A stretch of 64,000 nt of DNA from a virus: IMG/VR virus record IMGVR_UViG_3300022555_000009, one strand, 5' to 3'. How positions within the stretch are numbered: position 1 is the stretch's first letter; the number at the start of each line of letters is the position of its first letter. The position numbers were made by a program, and so were the translations under genes. This document shows positions 20,470 through 63,600 of this stretch, one piece after another. Below the pieces are notes generated by a model. That model saw only the letters and a list, made by a program, of their open reading frames with translations, searched no databases and was not told the DNA's origin.

Positions 20470-20761
20470 TTGTCTGACAACATGTACGGGCCACCCACTG
20501 CATGCGTAAGGTTTTGGTCGGTGGATAAAGTGCTAAAGGGGATCGCCGTCAGAAGCGTAATCTCTGCATAAAGTTGGGTGTGAGTCCTGATGCGTGTCTA
20601 CGAGTACGGTAGGAAACTCGTAGGGCAGATCGCGTGTACTAAGTCAGCGACGGGAAGGTGGAAGGCCCTCGTATTTTTCTGATGAGGTCCTAGCTGAAGG
20701 AGCTAGAGACATACTCCCAAAATCGGCGATAGCCCATCATACTAATTACTATATTAAACAT

Positions 20762-20830
20762 AGCAGGGAGAATGGGATTCAGTGAGGTCTCATAAGCCTT
20801 ATCTCGTCGGTCCGACTCCGACCTCTGCTA
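20762..20830 (+). tRNA. tRNA-Met(CAT), short D-arm
   Basis: AGCAGGG/CTCTGCT acceptor; CT-CAT-AA loop. Confidence 0.75.
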
Positions 20831-21183
20831 TAGGTACTAGCGAGTTTTGACCTCGCCATCAGACCGAAGGTAGCAACTCGCCTCAAGTAGTTGCCATCGT
20901 AGGTACCGGATGATTACGGTTCGCGAGTCCTTCTTCTTCGTTTCTCTCCTTTGAAGCTGGCCAGCTTCTCTTTTTCTCAAATCTGTTTTCTAAGGAATGT
21001 ATCGTGGTTACTAAGGAACTTGGTGAGTGTAAGATTTGTGGCGTGCCGCTTTTTGCTGAGGGGCTTAGTCCTCGCCAGCTTGAGGCTTTCGGGGCCACAG
21101 GAATGTGTCCTGATTGCAGTCGCAAGACGTACAAGTCGATGAAGGATGATCCCTACCCTGATTGGGACGATTAAACGAACGAA

Positions 21184-21305
21184 GGGGGTGTGTTGATTCG
21201 AAGCTTATGAAGATTAGATCCAACGGAAATGCCTAAAACACGAACGGATCTGTACCTTAAACGGTTGCTTTGTAAGTTGACGGGGAGTCAAATCCCCCAC
21301 CTCCA
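21184..21305 (+). ncRNA. Miniature tmRNA-like RNA (tRNA-like domain with almost no mRNA domain)
   Basis: GGGGGTG/CACCTCC-A acceptor with G3-U70, GATTCGA, long P2 helix, GAC then T-arm. Confidence 0.7.
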
Positions 21306-21315
21306 CTATTACTAT

Positions 21316-21388
21316 GCGTCATTCGTATAATGGCTAATTATTCCATCCTTCCAAGTTGGAGATAAGGGTTCAATTCCCTTATGACGCT
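21316..21388 (+). tRNA. tRNA-Gly(TCC)
   Basis: Cloverleaf; CT-TCC-AA loop. Confidence 0.85.
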
Positions 21389-21389
21389 T

Positions 21390-21897
21390 TCACTGATTTG
21401 TTTTCGAGGGTCAATACCTGAAGGCCCGCCAAAGATGACTACTAAGCCAGGTAGAGAGATCGGAGCTGCTCAAATCGTGCAGCGGTGATGATTGAACTCT
21501 ATTTGAGGCCATCTAGATTATGAATCAGAATCCTCGCATTCGTGTGAGACTAATAATTTGTAAAAGAAGGTGTAGGCTACATAAGATCGGTCGTCGAAGT
21601 TAGCCGAAACAAACTATGTGCATGACCCGTCCCACAGAGAACGTTGTTCTCTACCGGAAAGCTCGCGTGGCAAGCGTTAATCGCGAGACGGTTTCAATCA
21701 CCGTAAAGTGTTGTGAGCCTTAGAGTATTGAGGCAAGAGTGATATACTAATATCGACTATTATGGTACAATCTCCCTCGTGATTCATGGGGACTGCCTTA
21801 GCGAGCCTACTGAGGAGGAAGCAGTATTTTGGGGAGAATCACGTAACACTTATTGACAACCATATCTAAGTGCACCCGTACGATAACCGGGTTCTTT
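21390..21897 (+). ncRNA. Candidate large structured ncRNA (~500 nt)
   Basis: No ORF of 60 aa or more in any frame, many hairpins, inside the tRNA array, ends in hairpin plus T-run. Confidence 0.45.
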
Positions 21898-27114: not shown

Positions 27115-27187
27115 GGGCTTATAGTATAACGGCATATTATGGTAGCCTTGCAAGCTTCAGATCAGAGTTCGACTCTCTGTAGGTCCA
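27115..27187 (+). tRNA. tRNA-Ala(TGC)
   Basis: G3-U70 pair; CT-TGC-AA loop. Confidence 0.85.
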
Positions 27188-27196
27188 CTTTTTCAT

Positions 27197-31072: not shown

Positions 31073-31188
31073 TGAACGATAGCTCAGTGGGTAGAGCACG
31101 AAAAAATTAGGTCTTGACAAGACCTAAACTGCAATCCAAAATTAGCCTATTAAGCTCGTGGTCGTGGGTTCGAATCCCACTCGTTCAA
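31073..31188 (+). tRNA. tRNA-Asn(ATT) interrupted by a 43-nt hairpin element in the anticodon stem
   Basis: Removing 31102-31144 restores CGAGC-CTATTAA-GCTCG and a full cloverleaf. Confidence 0.75.
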
Positions 31189-39458: not shown

Positions 39459-39489
39459 AAGAATAGGGGGTTCATCAGAACCCCCTCCT

Positions 39490-39560
39490 GTATCCATAGC
39501 CTAGTGGCAAGGTGGGGATCTCTAAAATCCCACACGCGGGTCCGATTCCCGCTGGATGCA
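39490..39560 (+). tRNA. Amber suppressor tRNA (anticodon CTA)
   Basis: GTATCCA/TGGATGC acceptor; GGGAT-CTCTAAA-ATCCC arm. Confidence 0.8.
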
Positions 39561-39561
39561 T

Positions 39562-50100: not shown

Positions 50101-50130
50101 AAGGTCCCTAGCAATACTAGGGACCTTTTT
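50101..50130. terminator. Terminator between convergent genes
   Basis: AAGGTCCCTAG/CTAGGGACCTT hairpin. Confidence 0.7.
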
Positions 50131-53100
50131 TATGCTGGTGCTCCTTCCGAAAGAACAAATCCTATTTTAGATATAAAGGCCTGAGCGCTATCTTTCAATT
50201 GTTTGGGAGTCAAAATAATATTATTGTCATCCCACACCTGAGTTAAACATCGAGGTTCCGTCGCTAATTTCATCCTAGCCAAGTACACTGCCCCGGCTAC
50301 AGCGTCTGAGACGTCCTTCGCATTTATACCTAAAAGTGAGGTGTCCCAGTTTGTATCTGCGCCATTGGGATTAATAGTATCTCCTGGAGTATGATCTACT
50401 TTTAAAGTCCTTGTTTCCTTTCGCTGGACAATACGTAAGCTACGTAAATTATTCTTAAAGAAAATATTACGCCCTATTTTTAAATTACCTTGTTCGATTA
50501 ATTGAGTCAAGAACAAGTAAGGATCCATAGTCTTATCTACTGACAACTGTTCCATCTCTACACCATAACGCTCCAGGAACTGAATATTAGCCTCTGACTG
50601 AAAACTATCAAAGGAACCAAATTCTATTGGCATATTGCCTTCAGATATAAAATCAGTTATGCATTCCTTAATGGAGTCCAGATTAATTCGGCCACCAAAA
50701 GGATGGATAGGTATAACAGCATCAATAACATATACGAGATCAGTTAATAAATCAAAAGCTTTTCCAGTAACTGCAGAGTCATATTTCTTTTCGACATGAC
50801 AAAAAGCTATGGCTGCCATGTCTCCCGATATAGCTTGGTCAACATGAAATACTCTGGGAATTGTAGGCTTATAGTAGAAGTAATATCTATCACCAGATTT
50901 AATGAAGAAGGTATTTTTGACCTGATTCCATATCAATTTCTGCGGTGCCATTTTAGCATCGGATTTGATACAGGTATAGAGAGATTTTAATTGGTCAAAG
51001 AAACAATTCTCTATCTTATCCACTTGATAGAATAATTTATCTATGGAGCCTTGAGGAATACCTGCAGTGTTCTTTAAAGCCTCGACTATATTATCCTTAA
51101 ACAACTGCTCAATCTCTCTGGGCACCATTATAATGTCAGAAGGGTCGTATCCTTCTGTTGAATATAGTATCTCTGGCGGCTTACCATTACTACCCTTAAA
51201 TACAGGGAACTTGTCATCTAAGTTTTTAAAGTCCTCAGGGGCCCATTCCCATCTAGACCCCTTCACTACGTAATTGGTTTTATCTTTGCTCGCTTCAAAC
51301 ATGCAATACTTATCAATAGGAGACTCGAGATCGTTAGGAGAGGAGTCCAAGATAGACCGGCCCCAGAATTTACCGAGAGGCGTCTTATCCATACGAGAAC
51401 CAATACGTTCTTTTAATGACGTATAGAATTTCATTATGTATTCGTCACTGTTGGATGTAACAATAAAGTCATTAGCTAAAAATAGATGATCTTCATCCTC
51501 TATAGTGATGCATTGAGTTTCTTCCGACTCAATCTCTTTAATAGAGGAAAGTCTTAAGATCTGGCGATGACTCCGCTGCTTGCCTCTCCAGTACTCATCT
51601 ATCCTTTTTTGTTTTCTACTCATCTTGAATAGAGGGATAGAGTTATCTTTAAAATGAATACAAACATGGTAGCCGTCGAAAAATATCTGCTCTCTTTTCT
51701 TTTGCATACTTAAAGTTGCAAAAGCCCCCAAACTTCTAGCTAAATATACCACGTCTTCGGCCAAGGTTTTTGATACTGAGGAGAATACACCGCCTCCCTT
51801 GTTGACAGATCCATCGGTATCCATTAAGCCCTGCAATAATTCTATTCGATTAAGAATGGAATCATATAGATATTCTTTGGGGATAAATTTATCATTGCTT
51901 CTCTTGTCGACCAGCCCTAATTTAATTATTTCTTCAGCATACAAATTTTTAATCTTAGTATTTTTTTCTTTTTTAATTATTCTAATATATCTACTAGGAT
52001 ATCCGCTGAAAGACCAGGTATAGTCTTTATTCAGGTCTTTTGATACATTTAAAATACTCTCTTCCCTATCACCGTCAGAGCCCACGGACAAGATAAAAGT
52101 ATTGTGTCTAAAACTCCCGTCTCCTAAGGCAAACCCCATAATATATGGGGCTATGAAGTGACTTTTTTCGTTAAAGGGGGCGGGCTTAGACAGAGGAATA
52201 CCCCACATATTTTTTAGGTTTGTAGATCCTTCAAATATTTCTTGAGTTGTTTTTTTATACCAGTATCTATCTTTTTTTATTATCCACTCGTGTTCTGGAT
52301 TTGCTTTTATTTCTCTTCCATCTGAAAATACTAGTTTAAAGACTCTCGTTTTTCCCTGGGGGATTACTCGGGAAACTTTTGAGACAGTACCCTTATGGGT
52401 AAGAACACTGTCTCCTACTTGTATATCTCTCATCAATGTAAATCCAGACGGAGTGATTACTTCACTATCCATTGATAGTGCTTTGCCTGCCTCCCTGAAG
52501 AAGGCTAACTCCGTCATTGTTCCTGCGACAACCGTCAATCCTAAGAGATTATGTACGGATGATATGAGTTTAATATTTGTATTGTTGCTAAATTGTATAG
52601 CTGAAGTACCATTAGGAGAAGCTGTTGTCCAATAGATTCTATCGATAGAAGTTTTTCGCTGATAATCCTTTTCCATCTTAATCATGTCTTCTTTTGTTCT
52701 TACTTTTTCGAAGAAATCAGATACTTCTAGAAGACTTGTAAATGGCTCCAAGAGTACTTCTGAGGCCTTCTTCAGGGAGTAAGACGCTAAGACTATAGCT
52801 AGCTGAGCAGAGGGTGCCTGAGCGAATGTCCTCTTAGCGTCTCTCATCATAGAAAGATGTGTTATGATGTATAAGTTTATAAGAACGGCGAGGGTAGAGT
52901 TATGTGTTACGGTATAATCGTCGACAAGAAATAGTTTTTCGTCTCCGCTTACCTCTATGCACAGACCCTCATCGTTAGGAGTTCGCTCAATCTTTTTTAG
53001 ATAAAGATACATAGGCTTTCTTTTAATTCGGCTTCTATTGAAGTGATTGTCGATCAGTATTTGCTTTCTAAGAAGTGAGAAGATAGGAAAACTATTAGTT

Positions 53101-54371
53101 GGAAAAGTAATAAAAATTACATACCCCTCTTTTCCATTTTCACAGTGGGGCCGCTTTCTGCTGTCTACATGATATGAAGATTTGCCTCCGAGGCCTCGAA
53201 CCAAAGTAAGCATATTATCTCTTAAAAAGGGACTGGTAGTATAATAAGAGGCGAGTCCTGATCTCTTCGACACAGTTCCATCTGTGTCCATCAGACCTTG
53301 TAATAGTGCTATTCTATTGGCTAGGCTATCATACAAGTATTCTTCGGGAATAAACTTAGTATGACTTCGAGTACGCCTCAAATCCAATCTCTCTAGTTCT
53401 ACTTTATAAAGATTCAGAGTAGATTTTTCCTGAACCAAAGTTGTTATATAATTACAAGACGCATTAGGTCGCGTGTGAGTAAAAACTCCCTCAGGCACTT
53501 CAGATTTGATTCTAGAATGGATTTCCAGGTCATCCCCACAAAGAAATAGCGTGTTACCAAAATGACCGCCACCGAGGAGTGCTCCTAGGGTGTAAGAAGG
53601 TATGACGTGAATCCGCTGCTTATGTTCTACAGGATTCGTGAGAGGAATAAACCACCGTGCCTTGGGATTTTTTTCAATATCTTTTAGGATTTCACGAGAT
53701 GATATTATTTTCCAACAAGGTTCCGGATACGCTGTTTTTATATATTTTTTTTGAGATGAGTCCCATCTCTTTGTATTATATGATTTTGCGGCTTTCCAAT
53801 AGTGATCCAGTCCCGATGAGACCGATCGCCCATCTGCAAACTGCATATCGCAGAACTCATCATTAGACCAAGTCGCCCTGTTTATAACTCGGGCGATGTC
53901 GCCAGCAGGGGTACAAACTTCATCTCCCACACGTATATCATCTGCGATCTTATAGCCCTCAGGAGTACAAATCTTTGTCTTATAACGATTTATTTCTTTC
54001 CCCCAACCGATGTGAGGATACAAGACAGCATTTCTATATGAAGATTTAGGGTCCAAGAATTCTTGGAAGCATCTACTGATCTTAGGTTGTACCATAGGAG
54101 CCATTCTACCGATATACTTATCGGTAAGAAATTCCTCTGGCGCTGGTGGCCTATCTCTATAATTGATTCTCCAACTATTAGACATCAGGTATAACTTTTG
54201 CTGATTTGATAATTTGGGGTTATTTAGTATAAAATCTAAAGCTAATCCTATTTTCCTAAGATCCACGTTTTCAAATACTTGGTATTTATCAAGTAAACTA
54301 GTATCTCCAGATATAACATCTATTAAAACAGGAATGAGTTCTTTTTTATTGGTAATACGAGAAGCTTCCAT
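50130..54371 (-). CDS. Terminase large subunit with two inteins (~703 aa after splicing)
   Basis: Walker A GWGK|S split by an intein; RNase H-like HVDQAISGD, SFDSFQS, KVDH and KDVSDAVAG motifs. Confidence 0.85.
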   Translation of the reverse strand: MEASRITNKKELIPVLIDVISGDTSLLDKYQVFENVDLRKIGLALDFILNNPKLSNQQKLYLMSNSWRINYRDRPPAPEEFLTDKYIGRMAPMVQPKISRCFQEFLDPKSSYRNAVLYPHIGWGKEINRYKTKICTPEGYKIADDIRVGDEVCTPAGDIARVINRATWSNDEFCDMQFADGRSVSSGLDHYWKAAKSYNTKRWDSSQKKYIKTAYPEPCWKIISSREILKDIEKNPKARWFIPLTNPVEHKQRIHVIPSYTLGALLGGGHFGNTLFLCGDDLEIHSRIKSEVPEGVFTHTRPNASCNYITTLVQEKSTLNLYKVELERLDLRRTRSHTKFIPEEYLYDSLANRIALLQGLMDTDGTVSKRSGLASYYTTSPFLRDNMLTLVRGLGGKSSYHVDSRKRPHCENGKEGYVIFITFPTNSFPIFSLLRKQILIDNHFNRSRIKRKPMYLYLKKIERTPNDEGLCIEVSGDEKLFLVDDYTVTHNSTLAVLINLYIITHLSMMRDAKRTFAQAPSAQLAIVLASYSLKKASEVLLEPFTSLLEVSDFFEKVRTKEDMIKMEKDYQRKTSIDRIYWTTASPNGTSAIQFSNNTNIKLISSVHNLLGLTVVAGTMTELAFFREAGKALSMDSEVITPSGFTLMRDIQVGDSVLTHKGTVSKVSRVIPQGKTRVFKLVFSDGREIKANPEHEWIIKKDRYWYKKTTQEIFEGSTNLKNMWGIPLSKPAPFNEKSHFIAPYIMGFALGDGSFRHNTFILSVGSDGDREESILNVSKDLNKDYTWSFSGYPSRYIRIIKKEKNTKIKNLYAEEIIKLGLVDKRSNDKFIPKEYLYDSILNRIELLQGLMDTDGSVNKGGGVFSSVSKTLAEDVVYLARSLGAFATLSMQKKREQIFFDGYHVCIHFKDNSIPLFKMSRKQKRIDEYWRGKQRSHRQILRLSSIKEIESEETQCITIEDEDHLFLANDFIVTSNSDEYIMKFYTSLKERIGSRMDKTPLGKFWGRSILDSSPNDLESPIDKYCMFEASKDKTNYVVKGSRWEWAPEDFKNLDDKFPVFKGSNGKPPEILYSTEGYDPSDIIMVPREIEQLFKDNIVEALKNTAGIPQGSIDKLFYQVDKIENCFFDQLKSLYTCIKSDAKMAPQKLIWNQVKNTFFIKSGDRYYFYYKPTIPRVFHVDQAISGDMAAIAFCHVEKKYDSAVTGKAFDLLTDLVYVIDAVIPIHPFGGRINLDSIKECITDFISEGNMPIEFGSFDSFQSEANIQFLERYGVEMEQLSVDKTMDPYLFLTQLIEQGNLKIGRNIFFKNNLRSLRIVQRKETRTLKVDHTPGDTINPNGADTNWDTSLLGINAKDVSDAVAGAVYLARMKLATEPRCLTQVWDDNNIILTPKQLKDSAQAFISKIGFVLSEGAPA
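51450..52481 (-). mobile_element. Intein 2 (LAGLIDADG, class-3-type; begins with Ala, ends Ser-Asn)
   Basis: ALSMDSEVITP...EHEW...LLQGLMDTDG...QCITI...VTSN|S. Confidence 0.85.
52899..53996 (-). mobile_element. Intein 1 (LAGLIDADG, class-3-type; begins with Glu)
   Basis: EINRYKTKICTP...DHYW...LLQGLMDTDG...LCIEV...VTHN|S. Confidence 0.85.
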
Positions 54372-60694: not shown

Positions 60695-63600
60695 TTAAAA
60701 ATCTGTAATTTTTACGAATGGTGCTGATGTGTCAGTATTCTTTTTAGAGGCTATGAGCCACGACGTAGCTAGGTCATCTAATAGATTGTCATTTTTAGCC
60801 TTAGCGAATAATTCTCCATATACTAGGATTTGAAAAGTATTAAGAAAAGTTCTCATTTGATCAGGAGTTACTTTTTTAGGATTTGAGAACTGAGCAAGAT
60901 AGTCTTTCAGATCTGAAGCCTCATAGCGAACTCCCGGAAGCATTTTTTTAACAACTGAGGCTTTTTTAGAAAAATCTATCAGCACTTCTGGCGACAGTGT
61001 TTTCCACTTGGCCGTATCTACTCCATTGGGTTTATGCATCCCATACTTCGCAAACCACTCAGCAACCTCTGGAGATCCCGTTGCCTTGCCTAAAGCAGCT
61101 TGGGCTCCTTTTTTCTTAAACTCTACTGTTACAGATCTGACCTCCGAAGAATTACTACCAATTCTCACGGTGTAGTCTCCGGATCCATTTAAATCTTTCA
61201 TGACACCAGTTACTGTTACTGTTCCTAGATTAATAGGAAAAGAAATGAATTCTAGTTTAGGTAGAATGTGAGACTCTGGATCATCTCCGTACTCTACTTT
61301 TGCGGCCTTTTTAACTTTCTTTAAGCTAACCCCAATAATAGTTTTGCTCTCCAAAGCTTTAGCTAAGAAGTCATTTACTAACTGTAATTTTTCTTCTTTA
61401 GAATCGGTCGAATTTCCTATTCTCTCGAAAACACTGCGAATGTTATCTAGCTTAGTAGATTTACATATATAAATATCCGATGGATTCCAACTATCTGCAG
61501 ATTTAAATCCCAAAGAAGTGGCCATGTGTTTTACTAGGTCGTGTATATCTCCACCGGCAGTTTTTGGGAACGTTGTCCGGCCCCTAGAGTAGATATACTC
61601 TTTTCTATTTCCTATCCATTTAGTAAAAGCTCTAGCAGATTCAGTTATGGAATGATGCCACCCCTTGTCGCAATCAGGAAATAATTTCTGAAGTTCTTTC
61701 AGAGAAGCTTCTACTCCTAATTCGTTTAATTTATATAAAGCAAACGCTGTAGCAGTCTCCTGCTGCTCTGTTCTAGCCGTGGCGTCGCCCATCTTATTTC
61801 CTACTCCAGGGGTTGGTTTAAACTGGAGGGAGAAGGGATCTAAGGAAGGATCTTCTATGACAGGTCTATCACCTATTTTCATTACATGAATATGTAACTT
61901 AGCTGCAACTAAGTCAGCTGCTTCATTTCTATCAATGCCTGCGGTTGACCTAACATTCAATCTGATCTTTCCATCTTTACTATTTACCTTCTTAATAGTC
62001 TGCAGATTGTTCTTTGCTAAGAATTTATCCATTTGGTCTTGGGTCGTTTTTTCCTTTAAAGATTCGTGTACCTGCTGGAAATTCAAGGCAGAGAAAGTCA
62101 ACCTGTCTACCAGTTTTATTATATTTCCGTCGATATCAGATACGGCGAAACCCTCTTGTCCGGTCAGCTTGAATGATCCATCAGGTTCCCGTATGAAGGG
62201 AGTCACTCTAGGTAAATTATTTAACTTACCTATCAGGTAGTTCTTTAATTCAACAAGTCCAGCTTGAAACATAAGTAGGTTGCCGAATTCCTCTCGTTTT
62301 GTTTGTCCAAAGTATTCCTGCACACTCGCTATTTTAGACTTCGCTGAGTAATTTTCTGGTAGCCATTTCAAAAATTCTTCCACATATTTATTGATATCTC
62401 CGAACTGGAAATTCTGGCCTACGCCGTAATTTTCAAATCTGATCAATAGGTCTCTTAAAGTAGGCTTTGCAGCTACCTCATTAGCGAAGTCTTTACACTT
62501 TTCAAAAGCTTCTGATGTCTTGTTCTGCAATCCGACGCACTCATAGGATTCTTCTTCAGTTAAGGTTACTTTGCCAACCAGGGAAGGCAGATTAGAGTCT
62601 ACCGCAAATAATCCTTGCACAGGATTTAATTTAGATATATCTACATCTCCGAAAGACTTTGTTTCGGCTGCTGTCCTTAAGTCATTACCCCTTACGATTG
62701 TATGGAAGGCAACACCGGCATCACTAGATAAGATTCTCTGACCCAGATCCGTGTCTATTTCAACAGCGTACGTTAAGGTGTTAGGTGTAAATATAACCCA
62801 TTGCTTACCCTGCTCATCCGTTCTTTGTTCTAGGTCTTCCTTTGTGAATAAGAAATCGCCGCACCATAACTCGCCATCAGGAATTCCTAATTGAGGAATA
62901 TAATGCAAAGAGATTTTCAATTCATTAGCAAGGTTAGGCTTATCTCCATATCGTGCGTCTATCTCTTCATCAGTTTGAAAAATCTGCGGCTGCTTGGGAG
63001 AAAATGTATTCTTCATACCGACGAAAGGCCCATTGACACCAGGATAATTATTACCGAATACTGTAAAATGAGAACCATCCCATTTCATAGTAGCAGTGAC
63101 TTCTTCTTCAGGGGTGTTGCCTTGTAGCTCCGAAAATAAAGAGCCGAGGTAGCGCATAGCCTTCTCACCGCCAATGGCACCTTCGTTGTATACAAGATCC
63201 TCTATGTGAGGGATATTAGCTCCACCTTTCTCGTTGAGCTCATCTACTTTTCCAAGCCCTTGGCAATAAGAGCATTCGACTACTTCTCCGTTTAATTTTT
63301 GCCGGGTACCTTTGCCCTGGCATACAGGACACTTACCTACCATCTCTGTCAGCCCAATAGGTGCTTTCTGATGCGTCAAGAAATCGTCAACGTAAGCTCT
63401 AAAATTCTCAGCTAGATCAGGGGGGAATGTCTGCTTTACTTTATCCCAAATATATTCTAAGGGCTGCACTAAGTCTGTTGCGGTCCAGGGTTCACTAGAC
63501 TCAGAAGAAATAAGTCCTGCTACCTCATCTGGATTCGTTATCAAAGGGATAGAGGGATCTTTCTTCCCATTCGCATCTCGCTTAAAGACTCCTTGATTAT

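Follow-up and report, generated by a model that had tools for sequence, protein, structure and literature searches.

This study concerns a stretch of 64,000 nucleotides (nt), further called the window, from the IMG/VR virus record IMGVR_UViG_3300022555_000009. At positions 21184–21305 (+) the window contains a mini-tmRNA gene, i.e., a 122-nt gene for a shortened version of transfer-messenger RNA (tmRNA), which belongs to an uncultured 170-kb phage. Judged by its sequence, the element is a tmRNA that consists of the tRNA-like domain (TLD) only and lacks a coding sequence (CDS). In the predicted structure the complete TLD is kept, and the message and pseudoknots are replaced by a conserved module of two hairpins. 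On comparative grounds it is considered settled that the element is under selection as a structured RNA and represents a real gene. With little more than even confidence, it is proposed to be a functional phage gene for a tag-less, long-form mini-tmRNA that serves as a competitor or decoy and dampens tagging by the tmRNA and SmpB of the host. tmRNA-SmpB is the main bacterial system for ribosome rescue, and the way in which phages deal with it is poorly understood.

A first-pass annotation, made from the sequence alone, had described a TLD with an alanine-type acceptor (G3-U70 and A73), a stemless D-loop ending in GATTCGA, an 11-bp P2 helix, a GAC followed by a T-arm, and approximately 55 nt inside. 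All of these parts are present at 21184–21305, with the D-loop at 21191–21201 and the GAC and T-arm at 21279–21297. The distance between the two P2 strands is exactly 55 nt, and the register of P2 was confirmed by covariance-model alignment as well as by comparison with three phage relatives, L193, G003 and L191, which are introduced below. The parts of the element are the following:

21184–21190 (+): 5′ strand of the acceptor stem, GGGGGUG, pairing 7/7 with 21298–21304; G3 is at 21186
21191–21201 (+): stemless D-loop, UGUUGAUUCGA, 11 nt unpaired, aligning to the D-loop of tmRNA-type models
21202–21212 (+): 5′ strand of the P2 helix (11 bp), AGCUUAUGAAG, in the register used by the covariance-model alignment
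21215–21221 / 21246–21252 (+): stem of hairpin A, UAGAUCC/GGAUCUG, 7 bp, covarying with L193, G003 and L191
21222–21245 (+): loop of hairpin A, 24 nt, with the motif ACG.AAAUGC...CGAA; 21/24 identical in L193
21254–21265 (+): hairpin B, stem ACC/GGU of 3 bp and loop UUAAAC; 3/3 pairs covary, 100% paired in four sequences
21268–21278 (+): 3′ strand of the P2 helix, CUUUGUAAGUU, partner of 21202–21212
21279–21281 (+): GAC linker (tmRNA consensus: GGAC), invariant in the long-form alignments
21282–21297 (+): T-arm of 16 nt, GGGGA-GUCAAA-UCCCC, with a 5-bp stem and a 6-nt loop, one base less than canonical
21298–21305 (+): 3′ strand of the acceptor stem, CACCUCC, with U70 at 21302, followed by the discriminator A73 at 21305

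The 55 nt between the P2 strands fold as two simple hairpins. Two unpaired bases separate the 5′ strand of P2 from hairpin A, one lies between hairpins A and B, and two separate hairpin B from the 3′ strand of P2. All 33 base pairs are intact, and the final UUCGA of the D-loop, which ends in GAUUCGA, is a tmRNA hallmark. In the unconstrained minimum free energy fold (−37.9 kcal/mol, z = −2.7), some D-loop bases form pairs with the 3′ strand of P2. The tmRNA-type fold is practically isoenergetic with this minimum (−37.2 kcal/mol) and is the one supported by the comparative evidence.

The Rfam tmRNA model RF00023 aligns with the element from end to end (28.4 bits, E 8e-11 per genome), and the 3′ part of the element fits the tmRNA consensus GGACGcGGGUUCGAuUCCCgCCacCUCCA nearly base for base. 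No reading frame is shared with G003, L191 or two other phage mini-tmRNAs, L102 and L060. The element and L193 have GCC-UAA in the loop of hairpin A, the inner frame counts 9 codons in G003 and 16 in L191, and L102 and L060 are without a stop. A conserved tag frame was rejected, in line with the earlier identification of the element as the TLD of a tmRNA with almost no message. It had also been pointed out that a second piece would make the element a known two-piece tmRNA. Searches for a second or permuted piece found none in the 170.6-kb genome (RF04321, RF00023, and ARAGORN in linear and circular mode), the best RF04321 match in the genome being 10.2 bits, and no trans-pairing partner for the 16-nt inner strand of the mini-tmRNA was found in the window.

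A canonical one-piece tmRNA was rejected, as there is no conserved tag frame, no PK1–PK4 and no long helix 2, and a two-piece tmRNA was rejected, as the element has the standard 5′ to 3′ order and the genome holds no separate coding piece. Lacking the message, the pseudoknots or the second piece that these forms have, the element is therefore neither a canonical nor a two-piece tmRNA. It has the composition of the RNA of Mycobacterium phage DS6A, i.e., a complete TLD closed by P2 with a short insert replacing message and pseudoknots, and aligns over its full length with DS6A and 26 other phage examples. Neither an SmpB gene nor a gene for a CCA-adding enzyme was found in the phage. The 26 tRNAs called by ARAGORN all lack an encoded CCA, as does the mini-tmRNA, which is followed by CUA. 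The RNA would therefore depend on host SmpB and on CCA addition by the host.

Conservation of the element among phages

A loose pattern describing a tmRNA head that encloses 50–80 nt returned more than 120 viral contigs, and the 29 matches with perfect acceptor pairing are mini-tmRNAs of 89–116 nt. A covariance model, R1, was built from seven phage mini-tmRNAs, with the studied element left out. In the alignment of these seven sequences RNAalifold predicts 22 pairs, 15 of them with compensatory change. R1 matches the window at exactly 21184–21305 (45.1 bits, E 1.2e-8), the runner-up in the window scoring 20.5 bits. It also recovers the published DS6A RNA (50.5 bits) and approximately 25 further phage examples. 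In a 28-sequence alignment, 95.7% of the cells are paired, compared to 64% after shuffling and 41–54% with partners slid, although this alignment was fitted to the model and thus leans towards structure. The 28 phage sequences keep G3:U70 (28/28), A73, the UUCGA of the D-loop, the GAC linker and the 12-bp acceptor/T stack.

Closer relatives were obtained by a scan aimed at the 16-nt T-arm and by a whole-record search of a ligase-related phage, the latter leading to G003. The homolog at L193:7222–7343 is likewise 122 nt long, with 95/122 positions identical (78%). The L193 locus is otherwise unalignable at the DNA level, and the few common proteins are 25–44% identical. By sequence, the L193 element is a true ortholog. 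Of the 27 positions at which it differs from the studied element, 24 belong to the 66 that are paired and 3 to the 56 that are not. Ten pairs are altered on both sides yet still paired, and two are altered on one side by means of G-U. In total, L193 keeps 31/33 pairs, whereas a mean of 18 and a maximum of 29 pairs survive when as many stem substitutions are placed at random (20,000 trials, P < 5e-5). Within P2, 10/11 pairs are kept, mostly with both sides altered, while the D-loop and the hairpin B loop UUAAAC show no difference.

G003, from a complete 168-kb phage, and L191 have elements of 126 and 127 nt, respectively, both with the layout P2, hairpin A, hairpin B and 16-nt T-arm. When these are aligned with the element and L193, 87% of the cells are paired, compared to 69% after shuffling, and 21 pairs have changes on both sides, a number reached by 0/500 shuffles. 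Hairpin B and the T-stem are 100% paired, with almost every pair covarying. This test comprises four sequences only, and the structure was read off one of them. In the 28-sequence, L193 and four-sequence tests alike, the structure is kept by compensatory change, which identifies the element as a gene and not a relic. The conservation in other phages also argues against a deletion artefact, which had been named earlier as a possible refutation. That the inner 55 nt form a conserved module is regarded as settled by these alignments. The first-pass annotation had missed this two-hairpin module, which is not leftover spacer.

A second aspect missed at that stage is the elbow of the molecule. The T-loop GUCAAA has 6 nt and is closed by A-U, and the D-loop has a single G compared to GG in 27 other mini-tmRNAs. 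This combination is unique among the 28 aligned RNAs and is found elsewhere only in L193. The 6-nt T-loop itself is more widespread, occurring in a clade of at least nine sequences (the element, L193, G003, L191, L194, L195, L196, L197 and L237, the last of which is a contig of a gammaproteobacterial metagenome-assembled genome, MAG). The T-arm of this clade consists of a 5-bp stem and a 6-nt loop N-U-C-R-A-N, directly abutting the 7-bp acceptor stem, a pattern to which the element conforms. In the wider clade the T-loop is usually UUCGAU closed by C-G, the closing pair covarying between A-U and C-G. Since the 6-nt T-loop marks a wider clade, it does not represent damage but a variant that is maintained.

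The loop of hairpin A contains all invariant positions, ACG.AAA.GC...CGAA, of the long-form loops (six-sequence alignment). With an unchanged offset, it runs colinear to G003 over 40 nt (p 0.015), and it is also colinear with L079, another phage mini-tmRNA, over 26 nt (p 0.0125), and L237 combines both versions of the loop motif. Compared to the long forms, local-alignment shuffles give p ~0.01–0.06 and the maximum statistic p 0.06. With a position weight matrix the loop ranks 52 among 341,136 genome positions, which is weak, and it was not among the matches listed by a profile hidden Markov model (nhmmer) of the long-form loop. The resemblance to other long-form loops is suggestive. By eye, the motif also recalls the 5′ strand of E. 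coli tmRNA helix 2, which is a lead only. A 16-nt exact match, CCGACGAAAGGCCCAT, of the L102 loop motif at 63018–63033 (+) lies inside a long open reading frame (ORF) on the opposite strand, forms no helix and is probably due to chance.

Proposed function and alternative explanations

G3:U70 is an identity element of alanyl-tRNA synthetase (AlaRS) and, together with A73, makes the acceptor helix a substrate of this enzyme. RNase P and EF-Tu recognise a 12-bp acceptor/T stack. The mini-tmRNA would be transcribed together with the tRNA array in which it lies and be excised in the manner of a tRNA, with RNase P acting at the 5′ end, and trimming and host CCA addition forming the 3′ end. Host AlaRS would then charge it with alanine by virtue of G3:U70 and A73. 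The RNA could bind host SmpB, possibly also EF-Tu and stalled ribosomes, and compete with the host tmRNA at these ribosomes, so that fewer phage products would be tagged and degraded. The decay of truncated phage transcripts that is linked to RNase R would be lowered as well. Since no reading frame is conserved, trans-translation could not be completed, and the mini-tmRNA would act as a competitor or decoy. Tag-less rescue and sequestration of SmpB, the two functions suggested in the first-pass annotation, are both hypotheses, of which the latter is indirectly supported by earlier experimental work. DS6A-type TLD-only RNA expressed in E. coli is reported to inhibit tmRNA strongly, perhaps by titrating SmpB (Mao et al. 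2009, cited in PMC4131195 and PMC11915505). Truncated TLD-only tmRNA is reported to undergo peptidyl transfer in vitro (Shimizu and Ueda 2006, cited in PMC3895274).

Several points weigh against this proposal. The score of 28.4 bits is below the Rfam gathering threshold of 47 bits, and ARAGORN makes no tmRNA call. The Infernal and ARAGORN search suggested in the first-pass annotation gave the end-to-end alignment to the tmRNA model, and neither Rfam at its curated threshold nor ARAGORN makes a call at the element. Furthermore, the elbow is deviant, with one G in the D-loop, a 6-nt T-loop, G for U54 and A53-U61 for G53-C61, which could weaken contacts with SmpB, EF-Tu or AlaRS. A plain SmpB sponge needs only the short form of approximately 65–85 nt, as in DS6A, and the 3 changes in 56 unpaired bases point to an extra or different activity. 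Finally, a gain for the phage from blocking ribosome rescue is not established, and some phages carry full tmRNAs instead (PMC9004378; Marzo).

The strong constraint on the loops also bears on a first alternative, in which the RNA is a tRNA-like decoy or handle for another host or phage protein and interference with SmpB is incidental. Examples of such a partner are RNase R, a Ro60-type ring, a tRNA-targeting defence nuclease or a CRISPR accessory factor. The loops of the extension are more conserved than its stems, which suggests docking sites for protein or RNA beyond the needs of SmpB. Furthermore, a phage anti-CRISPR protein and RNase R are bound by fragments of tmRNA that include the TLD (PMC11662646). 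However, the parts of the tmRNA head are kept in 28 phage sequences, as expected if recognition by AlaRS and SmpB matters, and the loci examined contain no candidate gene for a partner in linkage with the element. As a replacement of the SmpB decoy, another partner is considered unlikely, though worth keeping in mind. In addition to SmpB, a separate partner of the extension is probable, since a sponge has no need for 56 unpaired bases under such tight conservation. This partner would be docked by the sequence-constrained loops of the extra hairpins.

A second alternative, judged rather unlikely, is productive rescue without a tag. Here, the charged RNA would take over the stalled peptide and free the ribosome without marking phage proteins for degradation, and termination would proceed either at GCC-UAA, which is conserved in the hairpin A loop and would add Ala-Ala, or by drop-off or other release factors. 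GCC followed by UAA indeed lies in a 24-nt single-stranded loop and is unchanged in L193, and the strong sequence constraint on this loop is as expected of a resume region. Bacterial tmRNAs with two-residue tags (Ala-Ala) have been reported, and in mitochondria CDS-less tmRNAs occur together with SmpB and are presumed to help (PMC11915505). On the other hand, the frame is not common to the other long forms, given the differing codon numbers in G003 and L191 and the missing stop in L102 and L060. There are no pseudoknots and P2 has only 11 bp, and it seems doubtful that a loop closed by 7 bp could be threaded into the mRNA channel. Moreover, DS6A-type RNA in E. coli is reported to have inhibited tmRNA and not to have replaced it (PMC4131195). 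The specific version in which the loop of hairpin A is a one-codon message (GCC, UAA), such that Ala-Ala is added, termination occurs without pseudoknots, phage proteins stay untagged and the host tmRNA is outcompeted, is a long shot on the present sequences.

A decaying remnant of a full-length phage tmRNA gene, without present function, would account for the sub-threshold Rfam score, the deviant T-loop and D-loop, and the sporadic occurrence of the gene, found within 10 kb in 3/42 DNA-ligase-related loci. The loop motif is also faintly like the 5′ strand of tmRNA helix 2, by eye only. In contrast, 33/33 base pairs are intact, L193 shows 10 compensatory pair changes and 53/56 identical unpaired bases in otherwise unrelated DNA, and the 6-nt T-loop is common to at least nine sequences, with its closing pair covarying. 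This explanation is very improbable, the covariation largely refuting it to the point that it is essentially excluded. Least credible, and likewise essentially excluded, is an unusual tRNA-Ala with a long insertion or intron replacing the anticodon arm, since, despite G3:U70, A73, the position inside a tRNA array and the insertions carried by other tRNAs of the island, there is no D-stem and no anticodon stem-loop, the tRNA model RF00005 gives no match at E up to 10 over 21100–21400 apart from the neighboring tRNA-Gly, the phage has an ordinary tRNA-Ala(UGC) at 27115–27188, and two tmRNA-specific features, the UUCGA of the D-loop and the GAC linker, align to tmRNA models.

If tagging or the decay of non-stop mRNA is indeed blocked by these mini-tmRNAs, they would constitute a widespread tool for takeover or counter-defence that is based on RNA. 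As natural minimal ligands of AlaRS, SmpB, EF-Tu and the ribosome, they would also help to dissect trans-translation, and the conserved loops provide a direct, testable handle for finding a new partner.

Genomic context and distribution

The phage genome counts 170,592 bp, has terminal repeats and carries rIIA and rIIB. The element heads an array of at least 26 tRNA genes and is on the same strand as the tRNA-Gly that follows it. Its neighbors are:

20761–20831: tRNA-Met, upstream of the element
21004–21174 (+): ORF of 56 amino acids (aa) with a CxxC...CxxC pattern, ending 9 nt upstream of the RNA
21316–21388 (+): tRNA-Gly(UCC), the first tRNA after the element, 10 nt downstream

For the 56-aa Cys-rich protein no family match was found, and the protein database contains only identical copies (28 contigs). 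In G003, a 32-aa Cys-rich ORF (..C.C...CQDC.., L190:624–722 (−)) ends 15 nt before the mini-tmRNA. A conserved upstream Cys-rich ORF was dropped as a family trait, as it is present only here and in G003 and in none of the other members. Downstream of the tRNA-Gly, approximately 500 nt (21390–21897 (+)) are free of ORFs and contain no Rfam match at gathering thresholds, no tmRNA coding piece and no complement of the inner strand.

Linkage to tRNA genes recurs in other phages. The L102 mini-tmRNA is at the head of a tRNA array, in a phage that has an upstream DNA ligase with 38% identity, and those of L101 and L081 are within a few bases of tRNAs. Provided that the contig is circularly permuted, the G003 copy lies approximately 1.1 kb upstream of the four tRNAs of that phage. 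The L193 copy stands alone. Joint processing with tRNAs is therefore a likely but not an obligatory feature.

The distribution of the gene is patchy. A search with an alignment of DNA ligases led to 42 related phage loci, of which the three with a mini-tmRNA within 10 kb are L165, L171 and L189. The search for relatives by means of rIIA alone yielded nothing, and a search with an rIIA alignment led to two contigs, both without the element. The first pattern scan of viral contigs for close copies gave 0 matches, as did the first scan of prokaryote genome contigs. A second scan of the latter gave 106 stretches, of which only L237 is real. Being a contig of a gammaproteobacterial MAG and the sole match in a prokaryote assembly, L237 provides a weak hint to the host. 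The only match in the metagenome scan, L017, was rejected as due to chance, as its acceptor ends are unpaired and no tRNA is nearby. Blastn of the region against cultured phages found a tRNA match only, and blastn of L102 and L079 found only matches to the T-arm and acceptor, including the two-piece tmRNA of phage Marzo.

In many actinobacterial genomes (L198–L277; Streptomyces, Nocardia, Rhodococcus), a stretch of exactly 120 nt fits the loose pattern. These matches of approximately 120 nt were rejected as mini-tmRNAs, as their 'acceptor' pairs at 4–5/7 positions; they would represent another conserved feature, possibly adjacent tRNA genes. Among the phage mini-tmRNAs, L040, L067, L100, L103 and L110 (approximately 102–103 nt) form a tightly conserved sub-family with the inner module ..AACACCGCUAAAU..GGGCAAU.., which is unrelated to the motif in the loop of hairpin A.

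Some further features of the window are worth mentioning. At 39489–39561 (+) there is a tRNA with anticodon CUA, labeled 'Pyl' by ARAGORN, which is most simply an amber suppressor. A CUA tRNA is also found at L193:3631–3702, beside homologs of the two ORFs that precede it here (genome 89338–90158). These tRNAs may be a sign that TAG is read through or recoded in this phage group. At 31073–31188 (+), a stretch of 116 nt matches the tRNA model but contains a large insertion. R1 scores its part 31099–31188 weakly (20.5 bits), and it is probably an interrupted tRNA look-alike. Lastly, in an ORF of 1413 aa at 50130–54371 (−), only residues ~560–990 match large-terminase families (PHROGs). The ORF is unusually long for a terminase and may be a fusion or contain insertions.

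Comparison with known systems

The implied premise of the first-pass annotation, that such an RNA is unheard of, was wrong. This kind of RNA is already known, since both the DS6A 'TLD only' form and organellar CDS-less tmRNAs have been published. No published description of the long form was found in the literature covered, outside of which most subscription journals lie. Beside the one tag-less phage tmRNA in the literature (DS6A), there are at least 27 further phage contigs with mini-tmRNA genes, all of which are missed by standard annotation tools.

The closest known system is the 'TLD only' tmRNA of Mycobacterium phage DS6A, the phage in which this type was noted first (JN698994.1 28478–28560, tmRNA Website tmID 11587; PMC4131195, PMC11915505). 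Both RNAs are encoded by a phage and share a GGGG... acceptor, G3:U70, A73, a stemless D-loop ending in UCGA, P2 and the T-arm. Both are without tag frame and pseudoknots, and neither is annotated as a gene. The tmRNA model aligns with both from end to end below its cut-off (43.2 bits for DS6A and 28.4 for the element), while R1 scores 50.5 and 45.1 bits, respectively. However, the DS6A RNA is 83 nt long with one short P2 hairpin, whereas the element counts 122 nt and has an 11-bp P2 that opens into two conserved hairpins. The element additionally differs in its 6-nt, A-U-closed T-loop and its single D-loop G. DS6A is a 60-kb actinophage, while the element is located in the large tRNA array of a 170-kb phage with rIIA and rIIB. 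Identity between both RNAs is approximately 42% over aligned columns.

With canonical ssrA (RF00023, e.g., of E. coli K-12), the element has in common the G3:U70 acceptor, the D-loop motif, the GAC linker, the T-arm and the base of helix 2. The canonical RNA is approximately 360 nt long compared to 122 nt, and the element is without PK1–PK4, helix 5, and the resume codon and tag frame ending in ..LAA. Two-piece (permuted) tmRNAs are known from Alphaproteobacteria, cyanobacteria and marine or large phages (RF04321; Melnitz, PMC9004378; Stenotrophomonas phage Marzo). They are likewise tmRNA relatives that can be encoded by phages and can lie in tRNA clusters (Marzo), but their genes are permuted, with the acceptor 3′ piece first and a coding piece carrying the tag, whereas the element has the standard order and one continuous head. 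The 'tmRNA' annotated in Marzo (MZ326868.1 70994–71368, L144) is a genuine two-piece tmRNA with a tag frame, and its annotated span overlaps the flanking tRNA-Leu and tRNA-Thr.

CDS-less tmRNAs have been described in jakobid and oomycete mitochondria and in Mallomonadaceae plastids (PMC11915505, PMC3590771). As in the element, the RNA is reduced, the alanine tRNA-like domain is kept and the tag frame is lost. In contrast to the element, these RNAs are vertically inherited, work with imported SmpB, count approximately 65 nt and are without the two-hairpin extension.

The other unannotated phage mini-tmRNAs (e.g., L079, L101, L102 and L068, as well as G003, L191, L193 and L237) belong to the same class and have the same architecture. 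They mostly measure 89–116 nt, with a single inner hairpin and the canonical 7-nt T-loop, the long form being rarer. Compared to all these systems, what appears to be new, from the sequences aligned here, is the form of 122–127 nt with a three-way layout backed by covariation, loops that are more constrained than the stems, and a clade-specific 6-nt T-loop.

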